The notes below the pieces were generated by a model. That model was given only the letters and a program-made list of their open reading frames with translations. It searched no databases and had not been told where the DNA came from. This document shows, one piece after another, positions 1 through 14,493 of a stretch of DNA of 19,434 bases. Position 1 is the first letter of the stretch; the number at the start of each line of letters is the position of its first letter. Source of the stretch: a virus (taxonomy: Duplodnaviria; Heunggongvirae; Uroviricota; Caudoviricetes); IMG/VR virus record IMGVR_UViG_2778261454_000002, positions 1 to 19,434 of that record. One strand, given 5' to 3'. Both the position numbers and the translations under genes were made by a program.

Positions 1-96
1 ATCAACCAAACCAGCGCAATGCCTGAAAAAACTGACGTTCACTGGAGTGGTCGGTTTAGCGTTGCACCAATGCTCGATAGGATGTACCGTTTTTGA
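1..96 (+). pseudogene. dusA: 5' fragment of host tRNA-dihydrouridine synthase A gene, truncated by the prophage junction (window starts inside the ORF)
   Basis: Frame 1 from nt 1 reads INQTSAMPEKTDVHWSGRFSVAPMLD, which matches my recollection of the E. coli DusA N-terminus (...RFSVAPMLDWTDRHCRYF...). After the D codon at 76-78 it diverges (RMYRF) and stops at 94-96. Recalled from memory, not searched. Confidence 0.6.
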
Positions 97-221
97 AAAA
101 CAAGTAGTTATACACTTTGTGGGAGCCTATTGGGAACCCGGTGTTTTCATTTCAAGGTGTAATCCATGCGGGGCATCAGAATGAGATATAATGAGATTTT
201 TAGTGTTCCGCTTGAGAGTCT

Positions 222-758
222 ATGATGCTTACCCTAGACGAGATAGGTCAATCTGTACGTAACAATATCCAGTTGATTATTGATCATGTCGGCTTACCTC
301 TTGCTGTTGGTCCGCTCAGTGATGATGATTACAAGATTCTGTGTGGTGGCTATGGTGAGCTTGAATGGGACTATGCGTTAAGCACCTATGGCAACTCCAG
401 AGAAAAGTATGAGTTCTGCATAAAACTTGTTCAGCAAGGTCGGGTTCAGGGAATACCATCAGGAGCAGCAATTTGTGTTTATGGGGTTGAAGAAAACATC
501 TTTCGTATCCATATGATCGAAAGGTTTTCTAGAGAAGATGAATCTCACCCATTGAAAGGGCGCATGGTTTTACTCACTCTTATGAGTGCTTTTATATTTT
601 GTAAAGCTGTTGAATGTAAAGTTGTCCACATTGTAGAGCCAGTACCAGAACTGGTGCAGTATTACGAGTCTTTTGGTTTCCGCATGGAACAGTGCGGTTA
701 TGTGATGTCTGCAGTCATTGATGAGCTGCAGGATATCTTTCTTAAATTTGCTCAGTAG
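222..758 (+). CDS. Hypothetical protein, possible GNAT-fold acetyltransferase-like; cargo gene
   Basis: 178-aa ORF in opposite orientation to the early-left operon and AT-rich relative to the head genes. C-terminal VVHIVEPVPELVQYYESFGFRM resembles the GNAT beta5-alpha4 motif (..FYEKxGF..). TATAAT-like hexamer near 187-192. Fold call is weak. Confidence 0.5.
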   Translation: MMLTLDEIGQSVRNNIQLIIDHVGLPLAVGPLSDDDYKILCGGYGELEWDYALSTYGNSREKYEFCIKLVQQGRVQGIPSGAAICVYGVEENIFRIHMIERFSREDESHPLKGRMVLLTLMSAFIFCKAVECKVVHIVEPVPELVQYYESFGFRMEQCGYVMSAVIDELQDIFLKFAQ

Positions 759-954
759 GTATAGACGAGAAGGGTCTACAAATTGTAGGATACCCGTCCA
801 GATTACCTTAAAGGTACATCTATGGCAGTCGTTTTGTGCTTAAACTACTAAGAAACGATGTCACCAATCGACATGATCGATTGGCATAAGTTAGCTAAAC
901 AAGCTAGCTTTAAAGAGAGGGTTAGAGACGCCTTTACTGTCTCGGGAGTTTTCT

Positions 955-1128
955 ATGAAAGATCAAAAAGCAACCAAGCAACAGGTTAAGTTCGACACAA
1001 TGAAAGCATTCGCAGGTATGGGTGCTGCTGTTGAAGTTCTGATGAAGGCTGCTCCTAATGCGTTCACTCACGCTACTGTCTCTGGTAAAGAGCAGCAGGG
1101 TAAGCTTCGTCGTCGCAAAGCAGCATGA
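955..1128 (+). CDS. Small hypothetical protein (57 aa, Lys/Ala-rich)
   Basis: ATG preceded by GGAG about 8 nt upstream; ends 20 nt before a strong hairpin with T-run. Below the ORF-track length cutoff. An alternative overlapping small ORF starts near 858 in another frame. Confidence 0.35.
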   Translation: MKDQKATKQQVKFDTMKAFAGMGAAVEVLMKAAPNAFTHATVSGKEQQGKLRRRKAA

Positions 1129-1144
1129 TCATAGCTGGTGCTTT

Positions 1145-1178
1145 TTGAAAACCCGCCTTTAGGCGGGTTTTTTCTTTA
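1145..1178. terminator. Bidirectional rho-independent terminator between convergent genes
   Basis: AAACCCGCC-TTTA-GGCGGGTTT stem-loop followed by TTTTCTTT on the plus strand and by a T-run on the minus strand; sits between the plus ORF ending 1128 and the minus ORF ending 1176. Confidence 0.6.
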
Positions 1179-1457
1179 GTGATGTTCTTTGCCCTTCTGT
1201 TTGCCTGTTCTGACCTGTTCCCACTCGATACGTCCTTCTTCTCGTCTTTTGTCTATGTATTCCGCAAGATCCTGAATATTGATGCAACGTTTTGCTTTTT
1301 GTGATGTGCCGATGCGATATGTTGGAACGGGCAACTTACAAGCGTTTGCTTTTGCTTCTGCCGTGGCTGGACTCATGCCAAAGTACTTTTGGCTAACTGC
1401 TGAGAGTTCAATGTTAGGGGTATTGAATTCAGCCATCAGTAAAAACAAGGTGTTCAT
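1176..1457 (-). CDS. PrtN/AlpA-like small DNA-binding protein (putative excisionase or transcriptional activator)
   Basis: Track ORF 1176..1484; start trimmed to the ATG giving MNTLFLLMAEF..., which has GGAG about 8 nt upstream. Resembles the pyocin-activator PrtN family as recalled. Confidence 0.65.
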   Translation of the reverse strand: MNTLFLLMAEFNTPNIELSAVSQKYFGMSPATAEAKANACKLPVPTYRIGTSQKAKRCINIQDLAEYIDKRREEGRIEWEQVRTGKQKGKEHH

Positions 1458-1493
1458 AATTTTCTCCATCAAAACCGGCTGCACCCGGGAAAA

Positions 1494-2066
1494 TCATAAT
1501 TCTGTGCTGGTGGCAGGAATTAATTTCTGCCAGATAGCGGAAACATATTTTGCCTGATGACGAGCATCAGCCAGGGCGTTGTGCCGTTCGCCATCGAAAG
1601 GCATGTCCATTTTGGGGTCGAATCCGATGAAACGCCCAAGCGTAACGATCGTGCGTACATCGTGGTCATTCCAGTACGCCCACGGGCAGATTTGTCCTGC
1701 TCGCTCGTAAGCTCCACGTAAAATTACGTTGTCGAAGGTGGCCCCGTTACCCCAGACTTTTAAATATTTTGTATTGTCTGCATGCTGATTAATGAAATGG
1801 CTCAGTTCAGATAGGGCAGATGATATCGGCATCGCATCATCAACACAGATTGCTGATCGTGCTTCTGAGCTTTGTCTTAACCACCACAGAATAGTGTCAC
1901 CATCCGGCACCGCTCCCTGCTCCATAGCGCTTTCAAGATTAACAGCGGTGTAAAACTCCTGACCCAGTTCACCGCTTTGCGGATCGAAGAATACGGCACC
2001 AATGGAGACAATAGGGGCATTCGGTTTTTTGCCCATGGACTCAAGGTCGATCATTAAGTTGTTCAC
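1494..2066 (-). CDS. 3'-5' exonuclease, DEDDh/DnaQ-like fold
   Basis: 190 aa. N-terminal MIDLES (D-x-E exo motif), later YWNDHD and C-terminal H..ALADARH motif typical of DEDD exonucleases. Annotated start is GTG; true start may be the ATG 4 codons in. Confidence 0.7.
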   Translation of the reverse strand: MNNLMIDLESMGKKPNAPIVSIGAVFFDPQSGELGQEFYTAVNLESAMEQGAVPDGDTILWWLRQSSEARSAICVDDAMPISSALSELSHFINQHADNTKYLKVWGNGATFDNVILRGAYERAGQICPWAYWNDHDVRTIVTLGRFIGFDPKMDMPFDGERHNALADARHQAKYVSAIWQKLIPATSTEL

Positions 2067-2087
2067 GTTAAATATTCTCCTGTTTGG

Positions 2088-2342
2088 CTATTCAGTAATC
2101 TTGCCGCGACGCATCGCACGTAGGTTTTTCAGGTTTGTTTCCTGCTCTATTTCGGCACATATTTTGCGATACTCATCATGCTCCACTCGTTCAAAATCTT
2201 CGTTAAAGCGTTTGATGCTAATCGTTCTCAGCTCGCCATCATTGCGTTTAATTCGGACCGAGTGATCACTACAGCTATGGATAATTACGGGCCAGTTGCT
2301 ACTGTCCGTGTAGATTTGACCGCGCCGAATCAGGCTAAACAT
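2088..2342 (-). CDS. DUF4222-like small phage protein
   Basis: 84 aa; RRGQIYTDSSNWPVIIHSCSDHSVRIKRNDGELRTISIKRF pattern recalled from lambdoid prophage DUF4222 proteins. Tightly packed in the operon. Confidence 0.6.
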   Translation of the reverse strand: MFSLIRRGQIYTDSSNWPVIIHSCSDHSVRIKRNDGELRTISIKRFNEDFERVEHDEYRKICAEIEQETNLKNLRAMRRGKITE

Positions 2343-2344
2343 TC

Positions 2345-2812
2345 TTATTTTTTCTCCTGCTCTGACTGTTCTTTGATATGCAATCGAGGTTCCCCGTCTT
2401 TCGGCTCAGGCCATTGGCGAACCTTATTTATAGCCAGCTTTTTTATCATTGCCTGGGTAATCTGCTCATCACTGATACCGGCACGACGTTGCGCATCCCA
2501 TAACAGGAATTGCATGTCAGCCCATTCGCTAAGGTCGCCTGGTTCAGCAGCAGCCTCGAGCGCTTCTTTGGAAAGGTGCTTCAGCGGACCAACTGGACCG
2601 ACATCGCCGAAAGTAGCCTGTGACCACGCTGCATGCTCACGGCGTACCAGCTCGCGGGCAATAGCCCCATCAATCACCTTCAATACATCAGCGAGAATGT
2701 AGGCTCTGTTCCCGCCGTTTGAGTATTGGGTATCATGCAGCAGGTGTTCGCGTATCTGGTGCAGGCGATCGAGTGATACAGGACCGTGCGCCGGGTGGTT
2801 GTTAGTTGTCAT
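2345..2812 (-). CDS. DUF550-type dATP/dGTP pyrophosphohydrolase-domain protein
   Basis: 155 aa; GGAGG RBS 8 nt upstream of ATG; sequence matches my memory of lambdoid prophage DUF550 proteins. Confidence 0.65.
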   Translation of the reverse strand: MTTNNHPAHGPVSLDRLHQIREHLLHDTQYSNGGNRAYILADVLKVIDGAIARELVRREHAAWSQATFGDVGPVGPLKHLSKEALEAAAEPGDLSEWADMQFLLWDAQRRAGISDEQITQAMIKKLAINKVRQWPEPKDGEPRLHIKEQSEQEKK

Positions 2813-2825
2813 GGGTTAGTCCTCC

Positions 2826-3134
2826 TTAATCCCATTGCAAAACTGATGCGAAATATGCACCGCGACACGGCGAATCACGAGGATGATGCCAGCCTGAATA
2901 GCCATCCTGACCACCTATTGGGCTAACTTTGTACCAGCACTGATAATAGCGGGCGCTACTTGCAAAATCAGCCGCACCATCCGAGTCGATTACATCTTGG
3001 GACACAGAAGCCTGAATTATTTCCGCTTCCGTATAATCGCCGCGCATAACGATGAATCGCGCATCTTCCGAGCAAAGATAATCACATGAACCGTCATATT
3101 TACCTTTGGCGGTAGGTTTGATTAATTTATCCAT
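2826..3134 (-). CDS. Hypothetical phage protein (Cys-rich, 102 aa)
   Basis: ORF with GGGGGAG RBS upstream; start overlaps the stop of the upstream gene; no family recognised. Confidence 0.5.
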   Translation of the reverse strand: MDKLIKPTAKGKYDGSCDYLCSEDARFIVMRGDYTEAEIIQASVSQDVIDSDGAADFASSARYYQCWYKVSPIGGQDGYSGWHHPRDSPCRGAYFASVLQWD

Positions 3135-3135
3135 C

Positions 3136-3483
3136 TCACTCCCCCTTCACGCCAATGCCAGCGGCTACAAGTTCTGCGGTGTTGGCATCCTGCTGTCGGC
3201 AGTCGCATTCAATCTCAATCGGCTCGCCCCATGGCTGCGTGCCGCCACTATCAGTCATTCCTGTGTCGTTGCATTTCGGGCATGGTTTTTCCTCAAGCGC
3301 ATTCAGCAACATACGGATCTCATGTTGTTGTGCTGCTATCGTTGAGTCTTTGGCTTCCAACTCATCCAGCAGCGCCTCCGCCTCGATGTAAATCACCTGC
3401 CGATCGTGGTCTGCCGGGTCGCTATAGTTGTCCTGCATGAACTGGAATTCTTCACGCAGCGCCTGTTTGTTGAGTGCTGTCAT
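3136..3483 (-). CDS. ead/Ea22-like protein with C-terminal CxxC...CxC zinc-binding motif
   Basis: 115 aa; N-terminal coiled-coil-like segment (ALREEFQFMQ..., EAEALLDELEAK) and PCPKCNDTG...ECDC. Start overlaps the upstream stop (ATGA). Confidence 0.55.
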   Translation of the reverse strand: MTALNKQALREEFQFMQDNYSDPADHDRQVIYIEAEALLDELEAKDSTIAAQQHEIRMLLNALEEKPCPKCNDTGMTDSGGTQPWGEPIEIECDCRQQDANTAELVAAGIGVKGE

Positions 3484-3734
3484 TGGGCTGCTCCTTGTCT
3501 GGCTCTGCTCAAGAGCTGGTTAAACATCATGGTTAGGCTGTTACTGCAACCAAACGGCATATCGTTAATGCGGTATGTTGGAATACCCTTGCGAACACCA
3601 GACTTCACGATCCGACCGGTGCCATAGAGCTGAGATAATGCTCCGGCGACCGCTGGGGTCTTTTTGTTCATACCTTTGGCGATTTCACCGCTGGTGGTAT
3701 TCGGATGAGCCTGGAGATATTCAAATACGGTCAT
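3480..3734 (-). CDS. Small winged-helix/HTH-like protein
   Basis: 84 aa; the SGEIAKGMNKKTPAVAGALSQLYGTGRI segment looks HTH-like; ATGA overlap with the upstream small gene. Confidence 0.5.
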   Translation of the reverse strand: MTVFEYLQAHPNTTSGEIAKGMNKKTPAVAGALSQLYGTGRIVKSGVRKGIPTYRINDMPFGCSNSLTMMFNQLLSRARQGAAQ

Positions 3735-3898
3735 GGCGTTTTATCTTTACGTTCCTGTTCCAGTTGCACCAGAGACTCTTTTAATGCTGCGAACGTAGCG
3801 TCCAGTCTGGTGGCGACTTCGCGCATAAGCGGCGCATGCTTTGGTGGCAATTCAGCAACGGAGGCAAACGCCTCCGCTACGAGTTCTTTTACCTTCAT
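3731..3898 (-). CDS. Small hypothetical protein (55 aa)
   Basis: Not in the ORF track (under 60 aa). ATG overlaps the stop of the HD hydrolase gene and its stop overlaps the next ATG (ATGA at both ends), suggesting translational coupling; predicted MKVKELVAEAFASVAELPPKHAPLMREVATRLDATFAALKESLVQLEQERKDKTP. Confidence 0.35.
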   Translation of the reverse strand: MKVKELVAEAFASVAELPPKHAPLMREVATRLDATFAALKESLVQLEQERKDKTP

Positions 3899-4434
3899 GC
3901 GGCGCATTGGCGCTGCTCCATCAACTCGTTAAAGCGATTGATGAACATGCCGTATGACTGGCCAGGACGAACTGGGTTGATAATGAATAAATCCGTTGGG
4001 ACAACTCCCTCGAGGCATGGCCAAATGGAACCTTCGTCAATCTCAAAATCGCGGCGTTCGCTGGCGAGCATCACCAGATCGGCATATTTCACTGTTGGGT
4101 GTTGCTCCGTCGGTAGGCCAAATTTCTGGCGAATAGCAGCGTCTACGCGAGCTTCGATCACCTGGTAATCCGGTAACAGGCGCTTAAGCGGTGAGGGAAT
4201 ATCTTGCAGGTAGGCTTCGGCGGCATCATGAAGCAGTGCTTCTAAGGCAAACTCCTGCGGAACGAGATGGCTGGTTAAAACGCTATGCTGGCCGACGCTG
4301 TAAAACTCAGGAAGATGCCCTGCAAAGCGGCAGATATGAGACAACGCGGTAGCAATATCCTCGATCACGATATCGTCCTGTTGGATATCGAGGTAATTAA
4401 AATGTTTGCCGGATAATGTCTGAATGTAGCTCAT
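3895..4434 (-). CDS. HD-domain phosphohydrolase (YfbR-like 5'-deoxynucleotidase family)
   Basis: Track ORF 3895..4461 begins at GTG; start trimmed to ATG (MSYIQTL...) with GGAG 6 nt upstream. H..HD motif region ALLHDAAEAYLQDIPSPLK resembles YfbR HDASEVLTGDLPTPVK. Confidence 0.7.
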   Translation of the reverse strand: MSYIQTLSGKHFNYLDIQQDDIVIEDIATALSHICRFAGHLPEFYSVGQHSVLTSHLVPQEFALEALLHDAAEAYLQDIPSPLKRLLPDYQVIEARVDAAIRQKFGLPTEQHPTVKYADLVMLASERRDFEIDEGSIWPCLEGVVPTDLFIINPVRPGQSYGMFINRFNELMEQRQCAA

Positions 4435-4542
4435 GGTTTTCTCCATATTGGCGCGCTGCACCGCGCCATTAAATTAATGAATTGCTGAATTTAGCGTGCA
4501 GCAACCCAACCCATGCTTATGGGGGTAATTGTTGCCTGGTGT

Positions 4543-5460
4543 TTATCGCTTGGCTTCGCCGCCGAGAGAGGTTGTTAATCCGTTAATGAGAGAGATAAGC
4601 TCGCCGGTCATCAGAACAAAGTCAGCGTCGAACCTCTGAGCCGCATCCTCACGGTCGATATCGTCGTTTTGTTCTGTAATCTCATTAGAGAACTTAAGGC
4701 GTTTGATGCTGCCGTCATCGCAAAGAACGAACTGAATGCGCTGTTGCCAGTCGATAGACAGCTTTGTAACTACTTTGCCAGCTTCCAGATGCACATGAAT
4801 TTCGTCACTGACCAGAGTCTGTTTTTTAAAGCGTCCAATACCGCCATCTTCAAGAATAGCTTTCAGTTCGGCTTCATCACCCAGGCCAAAGCCAGCAGGC
4901 GCACTACCGGAACGAACCCATTCGGTCATAGTTAGTTCGATCGGCGTTTCCATAGTCAGCGGTACCACCGGGAGAGAACCGAGAGTTTTACGAAGCAGGG
5001 CCAGTGAGTCTTCGGCACGTTTAGCGCTGGCTGCATCAACCATGATCAGACCGTCGGTGACGTTGATCCACAAACTAACAGTCGAGTTTTTGGAGAACGC
5101 CCGAGGAAGCAGGGAGTGCAACACTTCATCACGCAGCGAATCTTTCTCAGTTTTTTTGAGGCGACGCCCCTGATCGGATTCCAGACGCGACACACGCTTG
5201 CGCAGTTCTTCAGCAATGACAGGAGATGGCAGTATTTTTTCTTCCCGGCGAATAACCAACAACACTTGATTATTGACAGTGTGATGCAAGCGATCTGACA
5301 GCTGACCAAGTGGTGATACCCAACCGGTTTTTGCCATATCCTGGCTACCGCATGGAGTGAAGCGAAATAGTTCAAGCTGCTGTTCCAGCTCTTCCTGGTT
5401 GATGGTGAAATCGCGACTAATGCGATACACCAACATATTTTTGAAAAACGGATTGTTCAT
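4543..5460 (-). CDS. rdgC: Recombination-associated protein RdgC homolog
   Basis: 305 aa, alignable along its full length to E. coli RdgC as recalled ([85 protein letters not shown]). GAGGAA RBS upstream. Confidence 0.85.
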
Positions 5461-5772
5461 TCTCGGTTCCTCAACGCCTCTGCACCGGCGCTAAAAAGTT
5501 AGTTTCTCCATACACAACAGAGAAGGGCACCTGCATTGGTCGGCGGCTTGCAGAGACCGCTTTCTTTTTGCCCGGGTGGATTGGGTTATGAGCCCGTCGC
5601 CCGGTGATGCCCTTTTCTGTTGTGCCCTGAAAAAGGCTGGCGGTTACCGGAAATACACGGGAAAACACCGGGCCGCCAGAACAGGGAGTTACTTGTTATT
5701 GCTTTAGCCTGCTTTTAACCACATCAGGCGCGGTGGTATCTTGGTGTTCTCACACAACCAAGAGGGATGTTT

Positions 5773-5970
5773 ATGGGCGCTTTTGATAACCAGGAAATTA
5801 CGTTACCCGCATGCCCTAAGTGCGGCACTAAGACGAAGAAGAAAATCGCTTGGCTCAAGTCGAACAAAAGTTTCACTTGTCGATGTGGAGCTACTATCAA
5901 TGTCAACAGCAGCCAGCTTACTTCCGAAATCAGGAAGGTTGAGGACAAGCTGAAGAAGCTCTTTAAATAG
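5773..5970 (+). CDS. Small zinc-ribbon protein (CPKCG...CRCG), 65 aa
   Basis: Track ORF 5767..5970; ATG at 5773 sits about 7 nt after AGAGGGA; followed by a hairpin with T-run. Overlaps antisense with the 3' half of the minus ORF 5803..6168. Confidence 0.45.
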   Translation: MGAFDNQEITLPACPKCGTKTKKKIAWLKSNKSFTCRCGATINVNSSQLTSEIRKVEDKLKKLFK

Positions 5971-6168
5971 TTTTTTATCGACTGATATTATTTCGTTATC
6001 AGAGGTTGGTTTTTCAGCCTCTGATTTTTTAGTCAGGATCATTTTTTCTACACATGTGACTACGCATTCCGAACAGATGGCAGGTTCGTCCTTACCACCT
6101 TTTGCGACGATCTTTATCGCTCCCAGTTCGGTTGCTCCGCAAAATGAGCATGTGAATAAATGATTCAT
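5803..6168 (-). CDS. ClpX-type C4 zinc-finger small protein; first gene of the leftward operon; 3' extent uncertain
   Basis: ATG at 6168 with GGTGGTAGAGG RBS (track start 6186 is TTG). N-terminal CSFCG...ICSECV resembles the ClpX N-terminal zinc finger. The downstream two-thirds is antisense to the plus ORF and may not be coding. Confidence 0.4.
   Translation of the reverse strand: MNHLFTCSFCGATELGAIKIVAKGGKDEPAICSECVVTCVEKMILTKKSEAEKPTSDNEIISVDKKLFKELLQLVLNLPDFGSKLAAVDIDSSSTSTSETFVRLEPSDFLLRLSAALRACG
5999..6030 (+). terminator. Rho-independent terminator-like hairpin
   Basis: TCAGAGG ... CCTCTGA stem with a 12-nt loop followed by TTTTTT, 29 nt after the stop at 5968-5970. Confidence 0.5.
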
Positions 6169-6279
6169 GTAAACCTCTACCACCAACCTAAGTTTTCTGT
6201 CAGCGAATCATCCGGTTATTCATATGCCACCGGCGGCTACTTCGTGGGCGTCCTGCCTGTTCGTTACTGCAACATCTTT

Positions 6280-6325
6280 AAGTTGTAATCTAGTTGTTGT
6301 TTTGGTTGTTGTCAACAACTTTATG
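6280..6325 (-). promoter_or_regulatory. Candidate pL promoter with OL-like operator palindrome
   Basis: On the minus strand, TTGACA (plus 6310-6315), a 17-nt spacer and TAGATT (plus 6287-6292). The -35 lies inside GTTGTTG-N-CAACAAC (about 6305-6319). Placement right of cI matches lambda pL/OL logic. Confidence 0.4.
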
Positions 6326-6378
6326 TGGTTTTGACGGATGTGAAATGAGGGCAAGGGTTATCAAAAAAGGAGGTTGTA

Positions 6379-6482
6379 TGGACGATGCGCTTTTAATTAC
6401 ACAAGGGACACTTTCCTTCCGTGATTGGAAACTCTCAAATCACGGGAGGAAGATTGAAAAGGCGGGTAATAATGGTAACTAA
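6379..6482 (+). CDS. Possible small peptide (34 aa); low confidence
   Basis: ATG 5 nt after a near-perfect AAGGAGG; contains an 8-bp-stem hairpin (CCGTGATT...AATCACGG, about 6419-6446). Part of the longer TTG-start track ORF 6294..6482. Confidence 0.2.
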
Positions 6483-6509
6483 ATTTCTGAAGGAAGGTTT
6501 TTTGATGCA

Positions 6510-7196
6510 TTACCAAGTGCGCGATGACCAGAATACTCTACCTATAACGTGAATTCTTGAACGCCTATCTTCGAAGGTGAGTATTTCATCTGGATACTCA
6601 TCTTTATTGAAACTTCTTAGAATCAGACCACCGTCAGGTAAATTGATCAATATTTTAACTCTAAGTAATACGCCATCACGTATGGCATAAAGATCCCCAT
6701 CACGAATAGGAACCGTTTGGGAAACATCAACAGCAACAAAATCTCCATTGTTAAGTACAGGTAGTAAACTATTGCCCCAAATTTTTACGATCTTTGCATT
6801 GGAGACACATACACCAGCTTTTCTTAAATCAATCCTTCTTAGCGGGAACCAGTCTACAGTTGATTCAACTATTTCAGCCAAACATCCATTACCCGCTGAT
6901 AACTCGACATCTAGGACTGGAATGTTTGCAAAAATGTCAGGATCTAATGCTGTACTTTCAGCCTCCTTTACAACAAGGTCTGGGAAAGACGCGTTATCCT
7001 CAATGCCCAATTGCAACCACTTTTGAGAAACCCCTAACACTTTAGCAATCTCTTTAATTTTCCGAGGCTGTTGAGTTTCTCCATTCTCGATTTTCGCTAC
7101 GGATTGTTGTGAAAGCCCAATTTTTTCAGCTAGTTGCGCCTGACTCATTCCTGCTTTTTCTCTTTCGCTTTTTAGTCTTTCTGCCAATGTTTTCAC
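6510..7196 (-). CDS. cI: CI-type prophage repressor (N-terminal XRE HTH, C-terminal S24 LexA-like autopeptidase domain)
   Basis: 228 aa; HTH MSQAQLAEKIGLSQQSVAKIENG; C-terminal domain with Ser in IWGNSLLP and Lys in LLRVK. Divergent from cro; GTG start. Confidence 0.9.
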   Translation of the reverse strand: MKTLAERLKSEREKAGMSQAQLAEKIGLSQQSVAKIENGETQQPRKIKEIAKVLGVSQKWLQLGIEDNASFPDLVVKEAESTALDPDIFANIPVLDVELSAGNGCLAEIVESTVDWFPLRRIDLRKAGVCVSNAKIVKIWGNSLLPVLNNGDFVAVDVSQTVPIRDGDLYAIRDGVLLRVKILINLPDGGLILRSFNKDEYPDEILTFEDRRSRIHVIGRVFWSSRTW

Positions 7197-7199
7197 AAC

Positions 7200-7333
7200 A
7201 TATCCCCCTCGTTTTTATTGAGGTTACAACTTTATGTTTTAGCTTTCCAACATCTAAAAGTTGTGATAAAAGTTGTTGTAGTTGTATAATCGAAGTTATC
7301 AACAACTTTACTACTTACAGATAGGAGAAAGCT
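7200..7333. promoter_or_regulatory. OR-like operator cluster with PR (and presumably PRM)
   Basis: Repeated ACAACTTTA / TAAAAGTTGT and GTTGTTG / CAACAAC half-sites at about 7226-7238, 7254-7279 and 7299-7312. Plus-strand TATAAT at about 7285-7290 with TTGTGA about 18 nt upstream; AGGAGA RBS before cro ATG 7334. Confidence 0.6.
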
Positions 7334-7582
7334 ATGACACCTGAGCAATTAGCCTTATCAGAGGCAATCGCTCTGGCTGGTGGTCAATCAGAATTGGCTC
7401 GGAAGCTCACAGCCAGCAGTGGTCGTTTAGTAAAGCAACAACATGTCTGGAACTGGTTGAACAGAGAAAAGCGTCCCCCTGCAAAACTCTCGATATTTAT
7501 TGAAATGACCACTGGCGTATCAAAAGAAAAATTACGTCCAGATATTTTTCAAAAGATTAAAGACTTATCAGATGGAAAGTAA
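7334..7582 (+). CDS. cro: Cro-like HTH regulator (YdaS-like family)
   Basis: 82 aa; first gene rightward of OR, divergent from cI; HTH-like GGQSELARKL; YdaS-family resemblance is from memory. Confidence 0.7.
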   Translation: MTPEQLALSEAIALAGGQSELARKLTASSGRLVKQQHVWNWLNREKRPPAKLSIFIEMTTGVSKEKLRPDIFQKIKDLSDGK

Positions 7583-8156
7583 CCACAGTTTTAAGGAGAT
7601 AGCCGTGGGTAAGCATCACTGGAAAGTAGAAAAACAGCCTGAGTGGTACGTGAAAGCTGTCAGAAAAACTATCGCGGCGTTGCCGGGTGGTTACGCTGAA
7701 GCTGCTGACTGGCTGGATGTAACAGAGAACGCATTATTTAACCGCCTTCGTGCCGATGGCGATCAGATTTTCCCGCTGGGATGGGCAATGGTTTTGCAAC
7801 GTGCTGGTGGAACTCACTTCATTGCTGACGCTGTGGCGCAGTCTGCAAATGGCGTCTTTGTGTCTCTTCCTGACGTCGAGGATGTGGACAACGCCGATAT
7901 TAACAAGCGCCTGCTGGAAGTCATTGAACAGATTGGCAGTTATTCCAGACAGATTCGTTCGGCAATCGAAGACGGTGTGGTGGAACCGCATGAGAAGACA
8001 GCAATTAACGACGAGCTGTATCTCTCAATTTCGAAGCTGCAGGAGCATGCAGCACTGGTCTACAAAATCTTTTGCATTTCAGAAAGTAATGACGCCCGCG
8101 AGTGTGCAGCTCCGGGCGCCGTGGCGTGTCGTGACTGTGGAGAAACTAACGCATGA
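7572..8156 (+). CDS. CII/YdaT-like phage regulatory protein
   Basis: 194 aa directly after cro with an 11-nt overlap; position and size fit CII-type regulators (CP76/YdaT-like) of lambdoid prophages. Family assignment is from memory and uncertain. Confidence 0.55.
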
Positions 8157-8491
8157 ACAGTTTAACAACACACTACCGTCGCTCGCAACTGATTGCGCTT
8201 CCTGTACCGGGTGGAAAAGCGAAGGTGGAGTATTGCTATGCAGTTAATGTACCAGGTGACAGGGAAATTGTAACCCACAGCTTTGCTGAGTGGGCTGTGG
8301 GTGATTTCAACCGGCAGAAGGAGACAGTCCTTTGCGACAAGTTAACCGCTGGTTCAAAGATCACTACGGAGTGCCCGTCAGAGTCATTCGTTGGGAACCG
8401 GAAACACAACGGGTTATCTACCTCCGCGAAGGCTATGAGTATGAGTGCTTCAGCCCGCTCGAACAGTTTCGTCGTAAATTCAGGGAAATAG
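8153..8491 (+). CDS. Hypothetical protein; reading frame probably disrupted in its 3' half
   Basis: ATGA overlap with the upstream stop. N-terminal 60 aa look protein-like, but the C-terminal third is Ser-rich low complexity, while an overlapping Met-less frame (8305..8511) encodes a protein-like sequence. Confidence 0.4.
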
Positions 8492-8500
8492 AGGTCGGTC

Positions 8501-9136
8501 ATGAGCACTAAATTAACCGGCTATGTATGGGATGGTTGCGCAGCGTCAGGCATGAAATTATCCAGCGTGGCAATTATGGCCCGCCTGGCTGATTTCAGTA
8601 ATGACGAAGGTGTGTGCTGGCCATCAATTGAAACCATTGCCCGCCAGATTGGCGCGGGGATGAGTACCGTCAGAACGGCTATCGCACGGCTGGAAGCAGA
8701 AGGCTGGTTAACGCGTAAGGCGCGTCGCCAGGGTATCTGCATCATCGTCTGCCTGTCATGGGCTGTTAATCATTACCGTGATAACGCCATCGCCTATAAA
8801 GAACAGCGCGATAAAGCCACGTCTATCATCGCTGATATGCAGAAGCGTCAACGTGATGTAGCAGAACTTGACGCCAGATACACAAAGGAGCTTGCTGATG
8901 CTAATGCGACTATCGAAAGTCTCCGTGATGATGTTTCTGCTGGGCGTAAGCGCCTGCAAGTCGCCGCCACCTGTGCAAAGTCAACGACCGGAGCCAGCAG
9001 CATGGGCGATGGAGAAAGCCCAGGACTTACAGCAGATGCTGAACTCAATTATTACCGTCTCCGAAGTGGAATCGACAAGATAACCGCGCAGGTTAACTAC
9101 CTGCAGGAATACATCAGGACGCAATGCCTGAAATAA
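8501..9136 (+). CDS. Chimeric ORF: replication-initiator-like HTH N-terminal domain (about 78 aa) fused in frame to the C-terminal part of i-spanin Rz
   Basis: N-terminal [34 protein letters not shown] is an HTH typical of phage O-like initiators. From [19 protein letters not shown]... onward it is colinear with lambda Rz ([20 protein letters not shown]...[19 protein letters not shown]...LRDDVAAGRRRL...). Junction near nt 8735. Confidence 0.7.
8904..9083 (+). CDS. rz1: o-spanin Rz1 lipoprotein, embedded in the +1 frame of Rz
   Basis: Inside track ORF 8868..9083; [18 protein letters not shown] has a lipobox (LLGVSAC) followed by a Pro-rich segment ([16 protein letters not shown]), as in lambda Rz1. 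Start codon chosen by me. Confidence 0.7.
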
Positions 9137-9159
9137 TTTTTTTGCAAATCACAAAGTCA

Positions 9160-9235
9160 ATTTAATGAGCCTCGCGATGCGGGGCTTTTTGCAATAAATG
9201 CGTACCGCAACGCATGTTTTTTACACCGAACCTGC
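9160..9235 (+). terminator. Two tandem hairpin/T-run elements downstream of Rz
   Basis: AGCCTCGC-GAT-GCGGGGCT followed by TTTTT, and ATGCG-TACCGCAA-CGCAT followed by GTTTTTT. Coordinates approximate. Confidence 0.4.
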
Positions 9236-9337
9236 CCCTTTGGAATGGGCCTTTGAGGATACCAGTTAGTGCTGGCGAGCCTCGGTGGGCTGGTTTCCTG
9301 TGCGGCAAAGGTTCATTTCAAAGAGTAGGTACACGCT

Positions 9338-9835
9338 ATGAAATCATTAACCCTCTTCAATCAACCAATTCGTATCGGTGAAGATGGCATGATCTGCCTC
9401 ACTGATATGTGGAAAGCCAGTGGTAAAAGTGAATCTGAATCGCCTTACCACTACCTGCGAAACAAGCAGACCAAAGAGTTCTTAGCCGAGCTGGAGAAAA
9501 ACCACGAATCTGTGGTTTTTACTGAGCGCGGTGTACACGGTGGAACATATGGCGGGAAGTTTGTTGCTTACGATTATGCGGCTTGGTTAAACCCCGGGTT
9601 CAAGTACGCGGCCTATAAAGTCCTCGATGACTACTTCACAGGAGAACTTCAGCATCGCAACAGCTTAAGTGCGCAGCTCAACATGAAATGTCATGAGTTT
9701 GACCAGAAGAAAGACATGGCGAGTTTCTGCGGACAAGGGCTGGCGGCATGGCGCTATACGAAGCCAGTGTTGGTCGCTGAGATTAACTCCCTGGCTAACC
9801 AGCTGCAGATTACGATCCCCGGGCTTCCGGGATGA
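9338..9835 (+). CDS. KilA-N domain protein
   Basis: 165 aa; N-terminal pattern (FNQPIRIGEDGMICLTDMWKASGK...) matches the KilA-N DNA-binding domain as recalled. Confidence 0.65.
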   Translation: MKSLTLFNQPIRIGEDGMICLTDMWKASGKSESESPYHYLRNKQTKEFLAELEKNHESVVFTERGVHGGTYGGKFVAYDYAAWLNPGFKYAAYKVLDDYFTGELQHRNSLSAQLNMKCHEFDQKKDMASFCGQGLAAWRYTKPVLVAEINSLANQLQITIPGLPG

Positions 9836-10089
9836 GTGATCGTGTCATTGAATGCGCCTCCAGAGCGGGGCGCGACTTCTCAGAGTTCATGAAAGGCGAG
9901 AAGGGCATGATGGAAGCATTGGCCTCGGTGGATGAGTTTGGCGAGCAGCTGCGCCTCAACGGCTGTGTCAATCATCACTTTGTTAGCTACATGATGCGGA
10001 ACTCGATCATGCAGGCATTCATGGACATGGCAAAAGCCGAGAGGAAAGAAGAGCGCCGGCGTAAGCGAGCGGAAGCAAAAGCGAAGTAG
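9832..10089 (+). CDS. Hypothetical protein (85 aa, basic C-terminus)
   Basis: ATGA overlap with the KilA-N stop; C-terminal KAERKEERRRKRAEAKAK; followed by a hairpin (AAGCCCA...TGGGCTT). Confidence 0.5.
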   Translation: MSDRVIECASRAGRDFSEFMKGEKGMMEALASVDEFGEQLRLNGCVNHHFVSYMMRNSIMQAFMDMAKAERKEERRRKRAEAKAK

Positions 10090-10183
10090 CCATTCCAAAG
10101 CCCATCTACGGGTGGGCTTGATAATGGTATGTATTGTCTTCGGGAAGGCTTTGTAGATGTTAAGCGATTATTAAGAGGCAATC

Positions 10184-10342
10184 ATGACTTTAGCTGAACG
10201 TGTAAAGAGAATTGAGAGCGAATTAAAAGACATTAAATCGCAACTCAATTCTGGTACCGATTCTAGGAAAACAGCAAAAGCAATGCCCTTATCCAGTCTT
10301 GCAAAAGAGGGAGGTATCCCTGGGGGGTTAGTTAAAAAATGT
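10184..10342 (+). CDS. Small hypothetical protein (52 aa)
   Basis: Not in the track; AAGAGG RBS 6 nt upstream of ATG; predicted MTLAERVKRIESELKDIKSQLNSGTDSRKTAKAMPLSSLAKEGGIPGGLVKKC; its 3' end overlaps the convergent protease gene. Confidence 0.3.
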
Positions 10343-10792
10343 TAACTCAAATACTTGATTGGAAAAATCCATCGTAAGGGCGCCCATTTTAATTAGTTGC
10401 ATTCCGAAAACGACTTGGAATTTTCTCCCGTTACTTACCAATGGCACTGAAGTCAATTCTGTTGAAAAAACTCTTTCGTCCTCAGTGAACGATATTACCG
10501 CATGCCGAACTGTAGTTTCTATTGTTGAGGTGGCTCCGCTCACAGTTGTTTTTTCCGCGATTGGGAGTTTTAAATCGTCAGCAAAGTCTGAATCCACATA
10601 GCAAAGATCTGCTCCGGTATCTATAAGTGCGTAGGCACCAGCCTTCAATCCATTTGGTTTATAAACGTTTATATCTTTTGAGCTACTTGGCCATACTGTC
10701 AATGGAACTACGGGAATTGCATGCTCCGTGGGGGTATCTGATACCGATCCATCAATAGGGGAAATAAACTTGATTTTTACTTTGGTGATCAT
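10328..10792 (-). CDS. Retropepsin-like (clan AA) aspartic protease
   Basis: 154 aa; catalytic-type motif ALIDTGADLCYVD (D-T-G-A) and C-terminal GMQLIKMGALTMDF resembling the retropepsin dimerisation strand; AAGGA RBS. AT-rich, opposite orientation to its neighbours, with its own upstream intergenic region. Confidence 0.65.
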   Translation of the reverse strand: MITKVKIKFISPIDGSVSDTPTEHAIPVVPLTVWPSSSKDINVYKPNGLKAGAYALIDTGADLCYVDSDFADDLKLPIAEKTTVSGATSTIETTVRHAVISFTEDERVFSTELTSVPLVSNGRKFQVVFGMQLIKMGALTMDFSNQVFELTFFN

Positions 10793-11051
10793 CCTTTTTC
10801 CTTCGAAGAGTTATTCAGCCATTCCTCCTCTTTGCGTGAATCAGTGTCCCACCACTGACGGGCTGAATGCTTACCTTACCCGGGGTTAAAACGAAGTAAT
10901 ACCCTGATATTCAGACAGTAACCGCATCGCGCGGCATTTATGCGCATCGCACGCGCACATCAAAGAAAGTCTTTCAGCTGTGAGCCTGGGCAAACCGTTA
11001 ACTTTCGGCGGCTTTGCCGTGCGACAGGCTCACGCCTAAAAGGAAATACCC

Positions 11052-11216
11052 ATGAAATATTTATCGCTACAACAGGCGATGCTCGGCATGCGAGTAATCA
11101 TGACCGATGATGGCCTCATTTTGAAAAGCCCGGCAGGTAGTGCGCATTACGATCTGAAAGGTCGACGCCATACAGTTTGGGGGATGCTTCTTTCTTCCCG
11201 GAGCATATGCGTGTGA
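11052..11216 (+). CDS. Small hypothetical protein (54 aa)
   Basis: Not in the track; ATG about 8 nt after AAGGA; overlaps the next ORF in a different frame. Confidence 0.3.
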   Translation: MKYLSLQQAMLGMRVIMTDDGLILKSPAGSAHYDLKGRRHTVWGMLLSSRSICV

Positions 11217-11725
11217 AGGATAAGCGTAAGCCTAATCTCAGCCGTATTGTTTTTGAGAAAGACTGCACGACTATTTATGGTGCTGATGGAAAACCACAAG
11301 CACGCATAGGTAACTGGGATAAACCGGGAGAACCAAAAGGCTGGCGAATCCAAAAAGACGGCGCGTATATAACGTCTTATGAATTCAATCCTAAGAATAA
11401 TTTTAATGAGAACGGCCAGCAGTATGCAGCTGGAATGGTCGTTGGTATTGATGTGCAAAAGGGCAATGCAGCTGTTAATGCCAATCAATTTAAGTCTCCG
11501 ATAGAAGCACCAGATCCAATAACCGAGAGCATTTTAGAAAATGCACTTTCAACCCATGCTGCTAATAAAAACATCCAGGCCCTCATCAACCAGCAAGCAA
11601 AGGAGATCGTGGAAATGAAACAGGGCTTTGCCGAGTCTGTAAAAAAGGAGCTGGCTAAGCATCTTCGCCATGGTGGATTGATGTGGTCTGCATTAGTCAA
11701 GCGAAGTAGACGTTTAGACGTCTAA
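11207..11725 (+). CDS. Hypothetical protein (172 aa from ATG; track ORF begins at TTG 11177)
   Basis: Long ORF with no family recognised; the last gene before cos, where lambda carries bor and accessory ORFs. Confidence 0.5.
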   Translation: MRVKDKRKPNLSRIVFEKDCTTIYGADGKPQARIGNWDKPGEPKGWRIQKDGAYITSYEFNPKNNFNENGQQYAAGMVVGIDVQKGNAAVNANQFKSPIEAPDPITESILENALSTHAANKNIQALINQQAKEIVEMKQGFAESVKKELAKHLRHGGLMWSALVKRSRRLDV

Positions 11726-11789
11726 ATAACAACAGGCACTCAAACACAATTGATAACCATTATCGTTTGGGTCCTTTCCGGCAATCCGC

Positions 11790-11815
11790 CCTGTTACGGG
11801 GCGGCGTCCGCGCAG
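11790..11815. other. cos site: cosN nicking region with predicted 12-nt cohesive end GGGCGGCGTCCG (about 11799-11810), cosB downstream
   Basis: GTTACGGGGCGGCGTCCGCGCAGATTCTCGCTATATATGAAAATTTT is nearly identical to lambda cosN (GTTACGGGGCGGCGACCTCGCGGGTTTTCGCTATTTATGAAAATTTT), about 80 nt upstream of Nu1. Confidence 0.7.
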
Positions 11816-11886
11816 ATTCTCGCTATATATGAAAATTTTGGACATGAGGTTGTTGTTTAATCATTGCTGAAAACGGGTGAGGGAAT

Positions 11887-12393
11887 ATGGCCGTGCTATT
11901 GAATAAATCTGATATGGCTTCCTCGCTGGGAATATCCGTCCAGGCCTTTGATAAATGGGGTGTCCAGCCAGTAGAAAAGAGAGGGCGAGAAGTCTTCTTT
12001 GACGTTCGTTCAGTCGTTGATAACCGCATCGAACACCAGAGTCGAAAACTACAACCATCGCCGGGAGAAGACGATGATAGTGTCAATATTGATTATGAAC
12101 GTTGGCGTTTAACTCGTGCTAATGCGGATGCGGCTGAGCTGGCCAATGAGAAAAAGCGTCGCGAGGTCGTAGAGACTGCGTTTTGTACCTTCGTGTTATC
12201 CAGAATTGCCGCTGAAATATCCAGTATTCTGGATGGCATACCCCTTTCGATGCAGCGCCGGTTCCCTGAGCTGGAAAATCGGCATATCGAGTTCCTGAAA
12301 GGGGACGTAATAAAGGCAATGAATAAGGCTGCGGCGCTGGATGAACGGATTCCGGGGTTGTTGAATGATTATATCGACCAGTCAGGTAGCTAA
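11887..12393 (+). CDS. Nu1: Terminase small subunit Nu1
   Basis: 168 aa; C-terminal two-thirds almost identical to lambda Nu1 (VVETAFCTFVLSRIA.EI.SILDG.PLS.QRRFPELENRH..FLK...IKAMNKAAALDE.IPGLL); GAGGGA RBS. Confidence 0.9.
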   Translation: MAVLLNKSDMASSLGISVQAFDKWGVQPVEKRGREVFFDVRSVVDNRIEHQSRKLQPSPGEDDDSVNIDYERWRLTRANADAAELANEKKRREVVETAFCTFVLSRIAAEISSILDGIPLSMQRRFPELENRHIEFLKGDVIKAMNKAAALDERIPGLLNDYIDQSGS

Positions 12394-14287
12394 TCTGCGA
12401 ACAGCGGTAAAAGCTGGTCTGAAATCACTATACCGCCCGGAACCCATGACAGCTGTCGAATGGGCCGATGCGCATTATTACCTTCCGAAGGAATCCGCTT
12501 ATCAGGAAGGGCGCTGGGAAACATTGCCATTTCAGCGCGCGATCATGAATGCGATGGGCAGCGACTATATTCGCATTGTTAACGTAATTAAGTCGGCGCG
12601 AGTAGGCTATTCGAAAATGCTACTCGGCGTCATTGCTTATTTCATCGAGCACAAACAACGTAATGAGTTGCTGTGGCTGCCGACCGACGGCGACGCAGAT
12701 AATTTCATGAAGTCACACGTTGAACCTACGATCCGTGATGTTCCCTCGCTGTTATCACTTGCTCCCTGGTATGGGAAAAAGCACAGGGATAACACGCTGT
12801 CGATGAAGCGATTTACCAATGGCCGTGGCTTCTGGTGCCTGGGTGGTAAATCGGCTAAGAACTATCGTGAAAAATCAGTCGATGTCGTTGGATACGATGA
12901 GCTGGCTGCGTTTGACGCTGATATTGAGAAAGAGGGTTCGCCGACCTTCCTGGGGGATAAGCGTATCGAGGGTTCTGTTTGGCCCAAATCCATACGCGGT
13001 TCGACACCGAAATTGCGTGGAACGTGTCAGATTGAGCGGGCAGCAAAAGAGTCCGGACATTTTATGCGATTTCATGTCGCATGTCCGCACTGTGGTGAAG
13101 AGCAGTATCTTAAATTTGGTGACCGGGATACGCCTTTCGGCTTCAAATGGGAGCCTGAGCAGGCCGAAACGGTCTACTACCTCTGCGAGCATAATGCTTG
13201 TGTCATTAAGCAACATGAACTGGACTTTTCCAACGCTCGTTATATCTGCGAATTGACCGGAATATGGACGCGCGACGGGCTTCGCTGGTTCTCATCGTCT
13301 AATGCTGAAATTGATCCACCTGAAAGCGTAACTTTCCACATCTGGACAGCTTATAGCCCGTTTACCACTTGGGTACAGATAGTTAAAGACTGGTTCAAAA
13401 CGAAAGGCGACACGGGTAAACGCAAGACATTTGTGAACACCACCCTGGGCGAAACGTGGGAAGCGAAAATCGGTGATCGCCCCGATGCAGACGTTTTAGC
13501 AGAGCGTAAAGAGCACTTTGATGCTGCAGTACCTGAGCGAGTGGCGTATCTGACAGCGGGGATTGACTCCCAGCTCGACCGTTACGAAATGCGTGTGTGG
13601 GGATGGGGGCCGGGTGAGGAAAGCTGGCTTATCGACAGGCAAATCATCATGGGTCGCCATGATGATGAGTCAACGCTTGCCCGTGTGGATGAGGCGATTA
13701 ACAAGACATATAAACGCCGGAACGGCGTAGAAATGTTTATATCCCGTATCTGCTGGGATATCGGTGGTATTGACCCCACTATCGTTTACAACCGCTCGAA
13801 AAAACACGGTCTGTTTCGTGTGATCCCGATAAAGGGTGCGTCGGTTTATGGAAAGCCGGTGGCGAACATGCCCCGCAAACGCAACAAAAACGGTGTTTAT
13901 CTGACAGAAGTGGGTACTGATACCGCGAAAGAGCAGATTTATAACCGCTTCACGCTGACCGTTGAAGGTGATGAGCCTCTGGCCGGTGCCGTTCACTTCC
14001 CCAATAACCCCGATATTTATGATCTTTCAGAGGCGCAGCAGCTGACCGCCGAAGAACTGGTCGAAAAGTGGGTTGATGGTAAGAGAAAAATCATATGGGA
14101 CAGCAAAAAAAGGCGAAATGAGGCTCTCGACTGCTTTGTTTACGCACTGGCGGCGCTTCGTATCAGCATATCCCGCTGGCAGCTTAACCTTGATTCACTT
14201 CTTGCCAGCCTGCTGGAGGAAGAAGGCACCCGTAACAATAACAAGACCCTGGCGGATTACGCGCGGGCATTGTCTGGAGAGGAATAA
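12365..14287 (+). CDS. A: Terminase large subunit A
   Basis: 640 aa versus 641 in lambda; high identity along the full length (for example [40 protein letters not shown]); overlaps Nu1 as in lambda. Confidence 0.95.
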
Positions 14288-14493
14288 TGGCAACACAGAC
14301 TGAACTGGATGCCGCGCGCGCTGCGTTACATGACCTGATGATGGGGAAACGAGTGGCGACGGTACAGAAAGATGGCCGAAGAGTGGAATTTACAGCTACC
14401 TCAGTTACCGATCTCAAAAAGTATATTGCTGACCTTGAATCTCAGGTTGGTACCACATCACGACGCCAGGGGCCTGCAAGGTTTTACGTATGA
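14287..14493 (+). CDS. W: Head-tail joining protein W
   Basis: 68 aa, near-identical to lambda gpW ([41 protein letters not shown]). Confidence 0.9.

Follow-up and report, generated by a model that had tools for sequence, protein, structure and literature searches.

The stretch of DNA considered here, called the window below, comprises positions 1 to 19,434 of IMG/VR virus record IMGVR_UViG_2778261454_000002, and its left part holds the early leftward (PL) operon of a lambdoid Escherichia coli prophage, an arrangement that is already known and annotated. This is probably the repressor-controlled PL operon of a prophage integrated in dusA, belonging to a published class of lambdoid phages with no recombination (Rec) genes and many Chi sites. 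Ten tightly packed open reading frames (ORFs) lie on the minus strand between 1176 and 5460. In operon order their products are RdgC, an HD-domain protein, proteins of 58, 84, 115 and 102 amino acids (aa), a DUF550 protein, a DUF4222 protein, a DEDDh exonuclease and a PrtN-family protein, with individual activities assigned by homology. An original prediction, made from the letters of the window, had described an early-left operon rich in nucleic acid and nucleotide enzymes. That observation is confirmed: Pfam, PHROGs, NCBIfam and PDB searches recover the named domains at the predicted minus-strand positions, and catalytic motifs are legible in the sequences of the exonuclease, the HD protein and the DUF550 protein. 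The interpretation attached to it holds only in part, and the arrangement falls within the published class.

The operon reaches past the ten genes in both directions. A near-consensus sigma-70 promoter points leftward from inside a set of operator-like repeats; its −35 hexamer TTGACA (6315-6310) and −10 hexamer TAGATT (6292-6287) are separated by a 17-nucleotide (nt) spacer, and it scores 10/12 in a promoter scan. The operator cluster over this PL-like promoter (6269-6332, minus strand) shares its repeats with the cI-cro intergenic region (7221-7310), for instance GTTGTCAACAACTTTA compared with GTTATCAACAACTTTA. The two clusters are OL/PL-like and OR/PR-like, respectively, and flank the gene for a LexA-type CI repressor with helix-turn-helix and S24 peptidase domains (6510-7196). 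Downstream of the promoter the transcript would take in an ORF with a ClpX-type zinc finger and a 342-nt leader before it reached rdgC. The left end of the operon is a GC-rich hairpin (1147-1172; −16.2 kcal/mol, z −4.4), terminator-like on both strands and more strongly so on the plus strand. On induction, the LexA-like CI would be cleaved and RNA polymerase would start at PL (about 6280) and transcribe the zinc-finger ORF. It would then have to pass a terminator-like hairpin and the structured leader before the ten genes could be expressed, and would stop near 1147-1172. As for the internal junctions, the many ATGA start/stop overlaps reported earlier amount to two (3734/3731 and 3483/3480), so that "many" was an overstatement. 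The 58-aa and HD genes overlap by 13 nt, the other junctions 3′ of the HD gene are gaps of 1-36 nt, and 108 nt separate rdgC from the HD gene.

The window begins inside the 5′ fragment of a phage-borne dusA gene, and so its start marks where a dusA-integrated prophage has its left end. In the circular phage, int lies on the far side of attP. The lambda PL operon (N, cIII, kil, gam, bet, exo, ea22, xis, int) has the same position and orientation relative to cI, the same kind of OL/PL control, a terminal excisionase and, in one protein, a matching Ead/Ea22-type N-terminal module. However, the window operon has no homolog of N, cIII, kil, gam, bet or exo, rexAB are absent, int lies beyond attP rather than beside xis, and a different leader occupies the place of nutL.

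The absence of lambda-type genes, already remarked upon in the original prediction, is upheld by both profile and direct searches. No similarity to lambda exo, bet, gam, kil, cIII or N was detected with Pfam, PHROGs or NCBIfam, or with phmmer and blastp against lambda proteins; against a 19-protein database, the best phmmer E-values outside the Ea22 N-terminal module and cI were at least 0.16. The same set of searches recognised no single-strand annealing protein, recombination exonuclease, single-stranded DNA-binding protein (SSB) or anti-RecBCD gene in the early-left operon. Diverged Red, Gam or N proteins were likewise ruled out by these methods, applied against all lambda early-left proteins.

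Phages of this kind have been described in detail. Zheng, Casjens, Davidson, Amundsen and Smith reported that the Rec module is absent in 22% of lambdoid phages, that such phages show strong enrichment of Chi in one orientation, and that they may use the host RecBCD enzyme (Genome Res 2025, PMC12315714). YfdR-type genes are common in their early-left operons, and a few lambdoid phages have RdgC there (PMC12315714). The window operon has in common with this class its lambdoid gene order, the lack of any exonuclease, annealase, SSB or anti-RecBCD gene for recombination, a YfdR-type HD gene, RdgC (present in some members only), and a strong one-strand Chi enrichment that is concentrated in the half of the genome containing the early, nin and lysis genes. 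Phages without Rec genes would rely on host RecBCD and RecA acting at many Chi sites.

The Chi sequence GCTGGTGG occurs four times on the plus strand of the window (1506-1513, inside the exonuclease gene; 3690-3697; 7376-7383; 7803-7810) and not at all on the minus strand, against 0.59 expected, in what is a partial and deleted phage genome. The strand that bears these sites is also the one on which the head genes are read, and it is taken to be the "top", putatively active strand of PMC12315714. Related phages give larger counts. The phage of E. coli AH02, which has the same operon, carries 14 sites on one strand and 2 on the other (1.75 expected), and the relative in strain 97.3 carries 16 and 2 (1.17 expected). 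Counts for two further RdgC-bearing phages, given with no shuffled expectation, are 18 and 0 in Klebsiella phage KpF5 and 14 and 2 in Salmonella phage F1055.

Three points weigh against placing the window in this class. The published criterion is at least eight Chi sites per genome in the active orientation with few in the other, and the count of four falls below it, because the window is a partial phage genome and its prophage appears to be deletion-defective; compared with members of the class it is incomplete, with a large internal deletion, and a genome-wide Chi count cannot be established for it. RdgC inhibits RecA and sits awkwardly in a phage supposed to depend on RecA and RecBCD. Finally, the 58-, 84-, 102- and 115-aa proteins and the zinc-finger protein may hide a recombination or anti-RecBCD function. 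Phage P1 likewise carries an RdgC homolog, HrdC (56% identical); it is reported to depend on host RecA and RecBCD, and Chi has been proposed to stimulate that recombination. P1 differs in that it is not lambdoid and hrdC adjoins the dmt methyltransferase gene, outside any PL operon. RdgC is no general marker of Rec-less phages, for in Pantoea phage PdC23, which has few Chi sites and an Erf-type recombinase, the right operon includes RdgC.

The rdgC gene (4543-5460, minus strand) encodes a recombination-associated DNA-binding protein of 305 aa. Its product matches Pfam PF04381 (8e-116, positions 2-298 of 298), the enterobacterial equivalog NF001460 of NCBIfam (513.3 bits against a cut-off of 501) and the solved structure of E. 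coli RdgC (PDB 2OWL, 9e-136). Its identity to the K-12 RdgC protein is 67%, and both proteins have the stretch LLPRAFS, in which R118 and F120 of the K-12 protein lie; we take these two residues (E. coli numbering) to belong to the DNA-binding finger of RdgC. By homology the protein would act as a DNA-binding ring that damps RecA activities. The original prediction considered a phage copy of this gene remarkable. It is not unusual: a tblastn search found homologs in 355 of 50,697 phage records, among them P1/P7 hrdC, D6, F116, ICP1 and many temperate phages of Klebsiella, Salmonella and Vibrio, and RdgC in lambdoid early-left operons had already been noted (Zheng et al., 2025). The allele of the window is found in 33 of 5426 complete E. 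coli genomes, always with at least 99% identity.

A YfdR-like gene directly follows rdgC not only in E. coli prophages, but also in Salmonella phage F1055 and Providencia phage PSTRCR_117lys, where the HD proteins are 70% and 59% identical to that of the window, respectively. The two genes thus form a recurring adjacent PL-proximal pair across E. coli, Salmonella and Providencia phages. The pair occupies 25073-26768 in F1055 and 6505-8137 in PSTRCR_117lys, with the leader helix described below lying 5′ of rdgC.

The HD protein (179 aa; 3895-4434, or to 4461, minus strand) had been counted among two deoxynucleoside triphosphate (dNTP)-hydrolysing enzymes, a claim for which no dNTPase evidence was found. 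Over 178 aa, its full length, it shows 64% identity to K-12 YfdR, a 5′-deoxynucleotidase according to RefSeq, and it matches PHROG 318, "deoxyribonucleoside 5′ monophosphate phosphatase" (3e-98), and the PDB entry for Atu1052 (3.5e-13). It misses the curated thresholds of the Pfam YfbR-like family PF12917 (20.6 bits against 25.9) and of NF003009 (16.7 against 122). The metal-binding residues H33 and H69-D70 and downstream Asp residues can be aligned with those of YfdR. YfdR itself is a homolog of YfbR with much lower affinity for nucleotides that binds DnaA, and overexpression of the yfdR gene cluster inhibits chromosomal initiation (Noguchi and Katayama, PMC4776307). Judged from its sequence, the HD protein is a YfdR-type 5′-deoxynucleotidase homolog, presumably a weak one, for which homology to the K-12 protein predicts DnaA binding. 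The operon would consequently encode at most one member of a dNTP pyrophosphohydrolase family and one member of a deoxynucleoside monophosphate (dNMP) phosphatase family. A YfdR-type HD gene and a terminal excisionase are also found in the early-left operons of phage SfII and of K-12 prophage CPS-53 (KpLE1; yfdP-yfdQ-yfdR-yfdS-yfdT), that is, in early-left operons of the e14/SfII type, which differ in having no rdgC, DUF550 or DEDDh exonuclease gene. YfdP and YfdT were considered as homologs of the zinc-finger and 84-aa proteins and show no similarity to them.

The DUF550 protein (155 aa; 2345-2812, minus strand) is the dNTP pyrophosphohydrolase-family member. It matches Pfam PF04447 at 3.7e-44 (149.4 bits against a cut-off of 23; positions 2-96 of 97), has the acidic metal-binding motif E83xxE86 and E96xxD99, and finds its closest solved relative in MazZ (PDB 7ODY, 7.6e-4). 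For the MazG-like family to which it belongs, pyrophosphohydrolysis of dATP and dGTP was reported from a phage with a Z-genome (PMC12884076), and the same activity is predicted for the window protein. In AH02 and Nissle 1917 the gene is flagged by PGAP as an incomplete pseudogene (13267-13599 in the relative's coordinates). The ORF of the window is intact, with 155 aa, an ATG start, a good ribosome-binding site and the whole Pfam domain, and the pseudogene call is probably due to mosaicism at the two ends of the protein, not to decay. The third enzyme is a DEDDh (DnaQ-like) 3′-5′ exonuclease (190 aa; 1494-2066, minus strand). It matches the Rv2179c-like family of Pfam over its entire length (8.8e-74, positions 1-177 of 177), PHROG 255 (2e-90) and the "exodeoxyribonuclease" entries PDB 8KEN/8KEL (1e-7), with the motifs D7-x-E9 and H162-x4-D167 and an Exo II Asp read from the sequence FDNV.

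Related prophages in RefSeq carry copies of the operon. Positions 1-6241 of the window are 99.3% identical to a prophage of E. coli AH02, AH04 and CT01 (99.4% over the operon), positions 1451-6263 match the lambdoid prophage 3 of strain Nissle 1917 at 97% identity, and a lambda-headed prophage of strain 97.3 has parts of the region as well. Some part of it occurs in 808 genomes of the complete E. coli set. The gene order from the zinc-finger ORF through the exonuclease is the same in Nissle 1917 prophage 3 and in AH02, AH04 and CT01. However, the Nissle prophage has another xis/int module and another integration site, while the AH02 prophage has HK97-type heads and a contractile tail where the window has lambda-type head genes. 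The immunity region is different as well. In these relatives the PGAP annotation already covers all the genes, rdgC included, and the operon itself adds little: it is a further case of a lambdoid phage doing without recombination genes of its own, and it is already annotated in Nissle 1917.

Within the operon, three mosaic modules meet at gene boundaries (2065/2066 and 3479/3480). Module 1 (1-2065), common to mEp460-like phages, contains the morons near att, xis and the exonuclease gene. Module 2 (2066-3479) contains the genes for the 115-aa, 102-aa, DUF550 and DUF4222 proteins, in place of which strain 97.3 has other genes. Module 3 (3480-6266) contains those for the 84-aa and 58-aa proteins, the HD gene, rdgC, the leader and the zinc-finger ORF. 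These accessory modules can be exchanged separately, so that the genes form a mosaic and not a co-inherited pathway.

This mosaicism bears directly on an explanation of the operon that starts from its enzymes, a refinement of the original idea of nucleotide-pool manipulation. In it, the exonuclease and the DUF550 protein would produce dNMPs from DNA 3′ ends and from dATP and dGTP, the YfdR-like protein would dephosphorylate them, and the purine dNTP pools would be drained or reshaped in a coordinated fashion during early lytic growth. The three families do fit a chain from dNTP or DNA through dNMP to deoxynucleoside, and their genes share one operon. However, the affinity of YfdR for nucleotides is reported to be low (PMC4776307), and the three genes are distributed over three modules that were not inherited together. 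The relative in strain 97.3 keeps rdgC, the HD gene and the exonuclease gene and has other genes in place of those for DUF550 and DUF4222; SfII and CPS-53 hold YfdR with neither DUF550 nor the exonuclease; and of 5426 complete E. coli genomes only 34 have the DUF550 allele at full length. Relatives also have no PurZ gene, hence no pathway that requires the removal of dATP. Because the genes lie in independently exchanged modules, a coordinated pathway is unlikely. The same enzymes could instead be viewed as an anti-defence island, whose nucleases and nucleotide hydrolases would break down the signalling nucleotides of host immunity or act against defences based on dNTP depletion or abortive infection. 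Anti-defence loci in general are typically expressed early, are highly mosaic and contain small proteins without assigned function, and the exonuclease weakly matches a Cas-associated DEDDh model. That DEDDh match is all that PADLOC returns, which led us to reject a defence or anti-defence assignment by this route. The literature consulted links neither RdgC nor, by demonstration, any of these families to anti-defence, and with evidence that is contextual in nature this is the least probable of the explanations considered.

A different proposal concerns RdgC and its regulation. Zheng et al. suggested that rdgC is transcribed with cI in the manner of rexA, in which case RdgC would be made in the lysogen on the cI transcript and would serve, like RexA, in exclusion or in the lysis-lysogeny switch (PMC12315714). 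RexA is a structural relative of RdgC, and rdgC is found a short distance to the left of cI, an arrangement repeated for the homologs of F1055, KpF5 and the Providencia phage. In the window, however, the operator-flanked PL (6315-6287) stands between cI and rdgC, one hairpin (6413-6451) follows cI and a second, terminator-like hairpin precedes rdgC; SfII has an annotated terminator just 3′ of its cI at the equivalent position. The gene is downstream of PL, whereas lambda rexAB lie within the cI-to-OL interval, and a RexB partner was not found. Given PL/OL and the hairpins between cI and rdgC, we infer that rdgC belongs to the repressed early-left transcript, and we consider the RexA-like role quite improbable. 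The location of rdgC downstream of PL makes the published idea of co-expression with cI directly testable. The reading that we prefer remains that of a repressor-controlled PL operon in a Rec-less lambdoid prophage with many Chi sites.

The lead most worth following in this operon is a leader RNA, apparently undescribed, which may be the only new element here. The 342-nt non-coding leader between the zinc-finger ORF and rdgC folds better than shuffled controls (z −3.3). Its parts, in order, are a terminator-like hairpin, a long outer helix, an inner 5-bp helix, the arm GGGCUCAUAACCC, a variable hairpin, a conserved GUGU(A)UGGAGA motif and a last hairpin, with a UGCAG-type loop, immediately ahead of the first gene. 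The terminator-like hairpin (5637-5679, minus strand; −18.3 kcal/mol, z −2.7) is followed by U5 (5630-5634), and in related prophages it is built from at least six different stem sequences, almost all with T5-T7 after them. The conserved structured segment (5505-5633, minus strand) has a minimum free energy of −55.1 kcal/mol (z −5.1). Within it, the 13-nt arm (5583-5595, minus strand) forms with the preceding C a 14-nt sequence, CGGGCUCAUAACCC, that is identical to the anticodon stem-loop of the E. coli initiator tRNA-fMet (metZ, metY). The last hairpin (5468-5497, minus strand; −14.2 kcal/mol, z −2.0) bears a GGUGCAGA loop just 5′ of rdgC and is predicted to sequester part of the rdgC Shine-Dalgarno sequence; relatives have analogous hairpins with UGCAG-type loops.

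The leader is both widespread and structurally conserved. Of 5426 complete E. coli genomes, 2831 (~52%) carry a 55-nt core block (5570-5624) that is about 91% conserved. At the loci examined, this block is situated in untranslated sequence after a CI-type repressor gene and ahead of the first early-left gene, regardless of which gene comes first. When viral contigs were scanned with a 20-mer, at least 120 loci were collected, of which 38 diverse representatives were aligned; the arm is invariant in this set by construction, since the 20-mer covers it. The named structure pairs 95.9% of the cells of the alignment, compared with 41-57% when the partners are slid, and seven pairs show compensatory changes in 50 cells; none of 500 shuffles scores as high as the alignment. 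RNAalifold independently gives the same fold with nine compensatory pairs, and in its version the U-tract pairs with GGAGAAA, which lengthens the outer helix. With a covariance model, each phage yielded a single copy, in the PL leader every time, whereas right operons and K-12 CPS-53 yielded none. The model detects no second copy of the nut/put type after PR, a result still compatible with a single put site of the HK639 type, and a paired element resembling nutL/nutR was set aside on this ground. Diverged copies occur 5′ of rdgC in Providencia and Klebsiella phages, where the long helix is kept and the tRNA-like arm is absent; the Providencia copy retains the terminator hairpin and the Klebsiella copy the downstream motifs. 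The arm itself was found in the E. coli/Shigella/Salmonella branch. In SfII the leader element (6148-6251) falls within an annotated coding sequence for a hypothetical protein, SfII_35, which may be a mis-annotation.

Several known kinds of element were compared with this leader and rejected. Rfam gave no match at gathering thresholds or at E ≤ 1, ARAGORN found no tRNA gene, and the 14-nt arm is all that the leader has in common with the metY and metZWV loci. An exact 21-mer of the leader found no match in the papers searched. Of the Pas small RNAs of a 2026 preprint, PasA, PasC and PasD are encoded near Q, the holin/lysozyme genes and structural genes and not in the PL leader. A 65-codon basic ORF (5471-5668) was considered as an N-like gene; it matches no family, lacks a convincing ribosome-binding site and shares its sequence with part of the structured RNA. 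Nor is the zinc-finger protein a universal N-like partner of the leader, for there are prophages with the same leader and no annotated ORF between cI and the leader, where alignment inspection reveals only an ORF of about 13 codons.

That the early-left operon is gated by an undescribed class of cis-acting leader RNA is a tentative proposal, to which we would give somewhat less than an even chance. The modelled helix of about 18-25 bp could be a substrate for RNase III, and the predicted pairing of the U-tract with the downstream GGAGAAA may form. Possible roles include read-through, processing or translational control of early-left genes, in phages whose family has no N protein that can be recognised; the element may also mimic the initiator anticodon arm, acting as a decoy or as a binding site for a factor specific to that arm. 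If it is functional, E. coli prophages would have in this leader a regulatory RNA that is both uncharacterised and very widespread.

The prophage of the window is probably defective or cryptic. The plus-strand ORF at 8501-9136 is an in-frame fusion of about 80 N-terminal aa of a replication-initiator or primosomal-type protein (HTH_36) to an Rz-like spanin, and about 10 kb of the 97.3 relative are missing around it (region 8742-9846). The missing genes comprise the rest of the replication gene, PerC, Dam, RusA, KilA-N, DUF968, nin-type genes, Q, holin and lysozyme; it is this fusion and loss that point to a cryptic state. In AH02 and CT01 the phage may still excise: the 43.7-kb circular "plasmid" records NZ_CP081704.1 and NZ_CP081794.1 correspond to the prophage that is also in the chromosome, which suggests that they are spontaneously excised phage. 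These two strains would be usable inducible relatives for the genetics of the operon.

The last gene of the operon had been called PrtN-like, and its PrtN-family winged-helix domain is confirmed (1176-1457, minus strand; Pfam PyocinActivator, 4e-23). The protein is most likely an excisionase (Xis) and not a pyocin activator, as suggested by its match to PHROG 1300 "excisionase" (8e-40), its position as the last gene before the att/dusA′ end, the annotation of its counterpart in mEp460 as excisionase, and the presence of a different excisionase in the same slot, beside int, in Nissle 1917. With this assignment and that of the HD protein as a YfdR-type homolog rather than a dNTPase, two tempting misreadings are corrected.

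The remaining products of the operon are small. The 58-aa protein (3731-3907, minus strand) matches PHROG 12248, of unknown function (1e-34). The 84-aa protein (3480-3734, minus strand), whose gene has an ATGA overlap on both sides, is basic (pI 10.2) and winged-helix-like, with a match to PHROG 1687 "MarR family regulator" (7e-25). The 115-aa protein (3136-3483, minus strand; PHROG 19867, 8e-65), which PGAP labels as a whole "hypothetical", is a mosaic of an Ead/Ea22-type N-terminal module and a Cys-rich C-terminal module. The earlier label "Ea22-like" applies to residues 1-55 only: these ~55 aa are 36% identical to the N-terminus of lambda Ea22, and the first 33 aa of P22 EaD are matched at 76% identity. 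The long coiled coil and C-terminal architecture of Ea22 are lacking, and the Cys-rich C-terminus is similar to hypothetical proteins from phages of Pseudomonas and E. coli that are unrelated. The 102-aa protein (2826-3134, minus strand) matches PHROG 28696, of unknown function (2e-72), and nothing in Pfam, NCBIfam or PADLOC. The DUF4222 protein (84 aa; 2088-2342, minus strand) is recognised by Pfam (2e-10) and PHROG 285 (9e-31). The first ORF after PL (121 aa; 5803-6168, minus strand) has an N-terminal ClpX-type C4 zinc finger that falls just under the Pfam zf-C4_ClpX cut-off (7.6e-6, 26.2 bits against 27); it matches PHROG 20296, of unknown function (3e-68), and is called "ClpX C4-type zinc finger protein" by PGAP in relatives.

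Other ORFs in the region are read from the plus strand. A 67-aa zinc-ribbon ORF (CPKC...CRC; 5767-5970) lies antisense to the C-terminal half of the ClpX-zinc-finger ORF and has weak family matches (Lar-like, 0.004); directly after it is a perfect 12-bp terminator-like hairpin with a plus-strand T-run (5998-6025). It is possible that one ORF of this overlapping pair is spurious; alternatively, the 67-aa ORF could be a convergent moron. Another ORF, of 34 codons and with a strong ribosome-binding site, AAGGAGG, is located on the opposite strand in the interval from PL to the end of cI (6378-6482) and overlaps the 17-bp inverted repeat (hairpin 6413-6451) just 3′ of cI. Finally, two ORFs of unknown function between att and xis (222-758, 178 aa; 955-1128, 57 aa) face against the early-left operon, in the manner of morons expressed during lysogeny.

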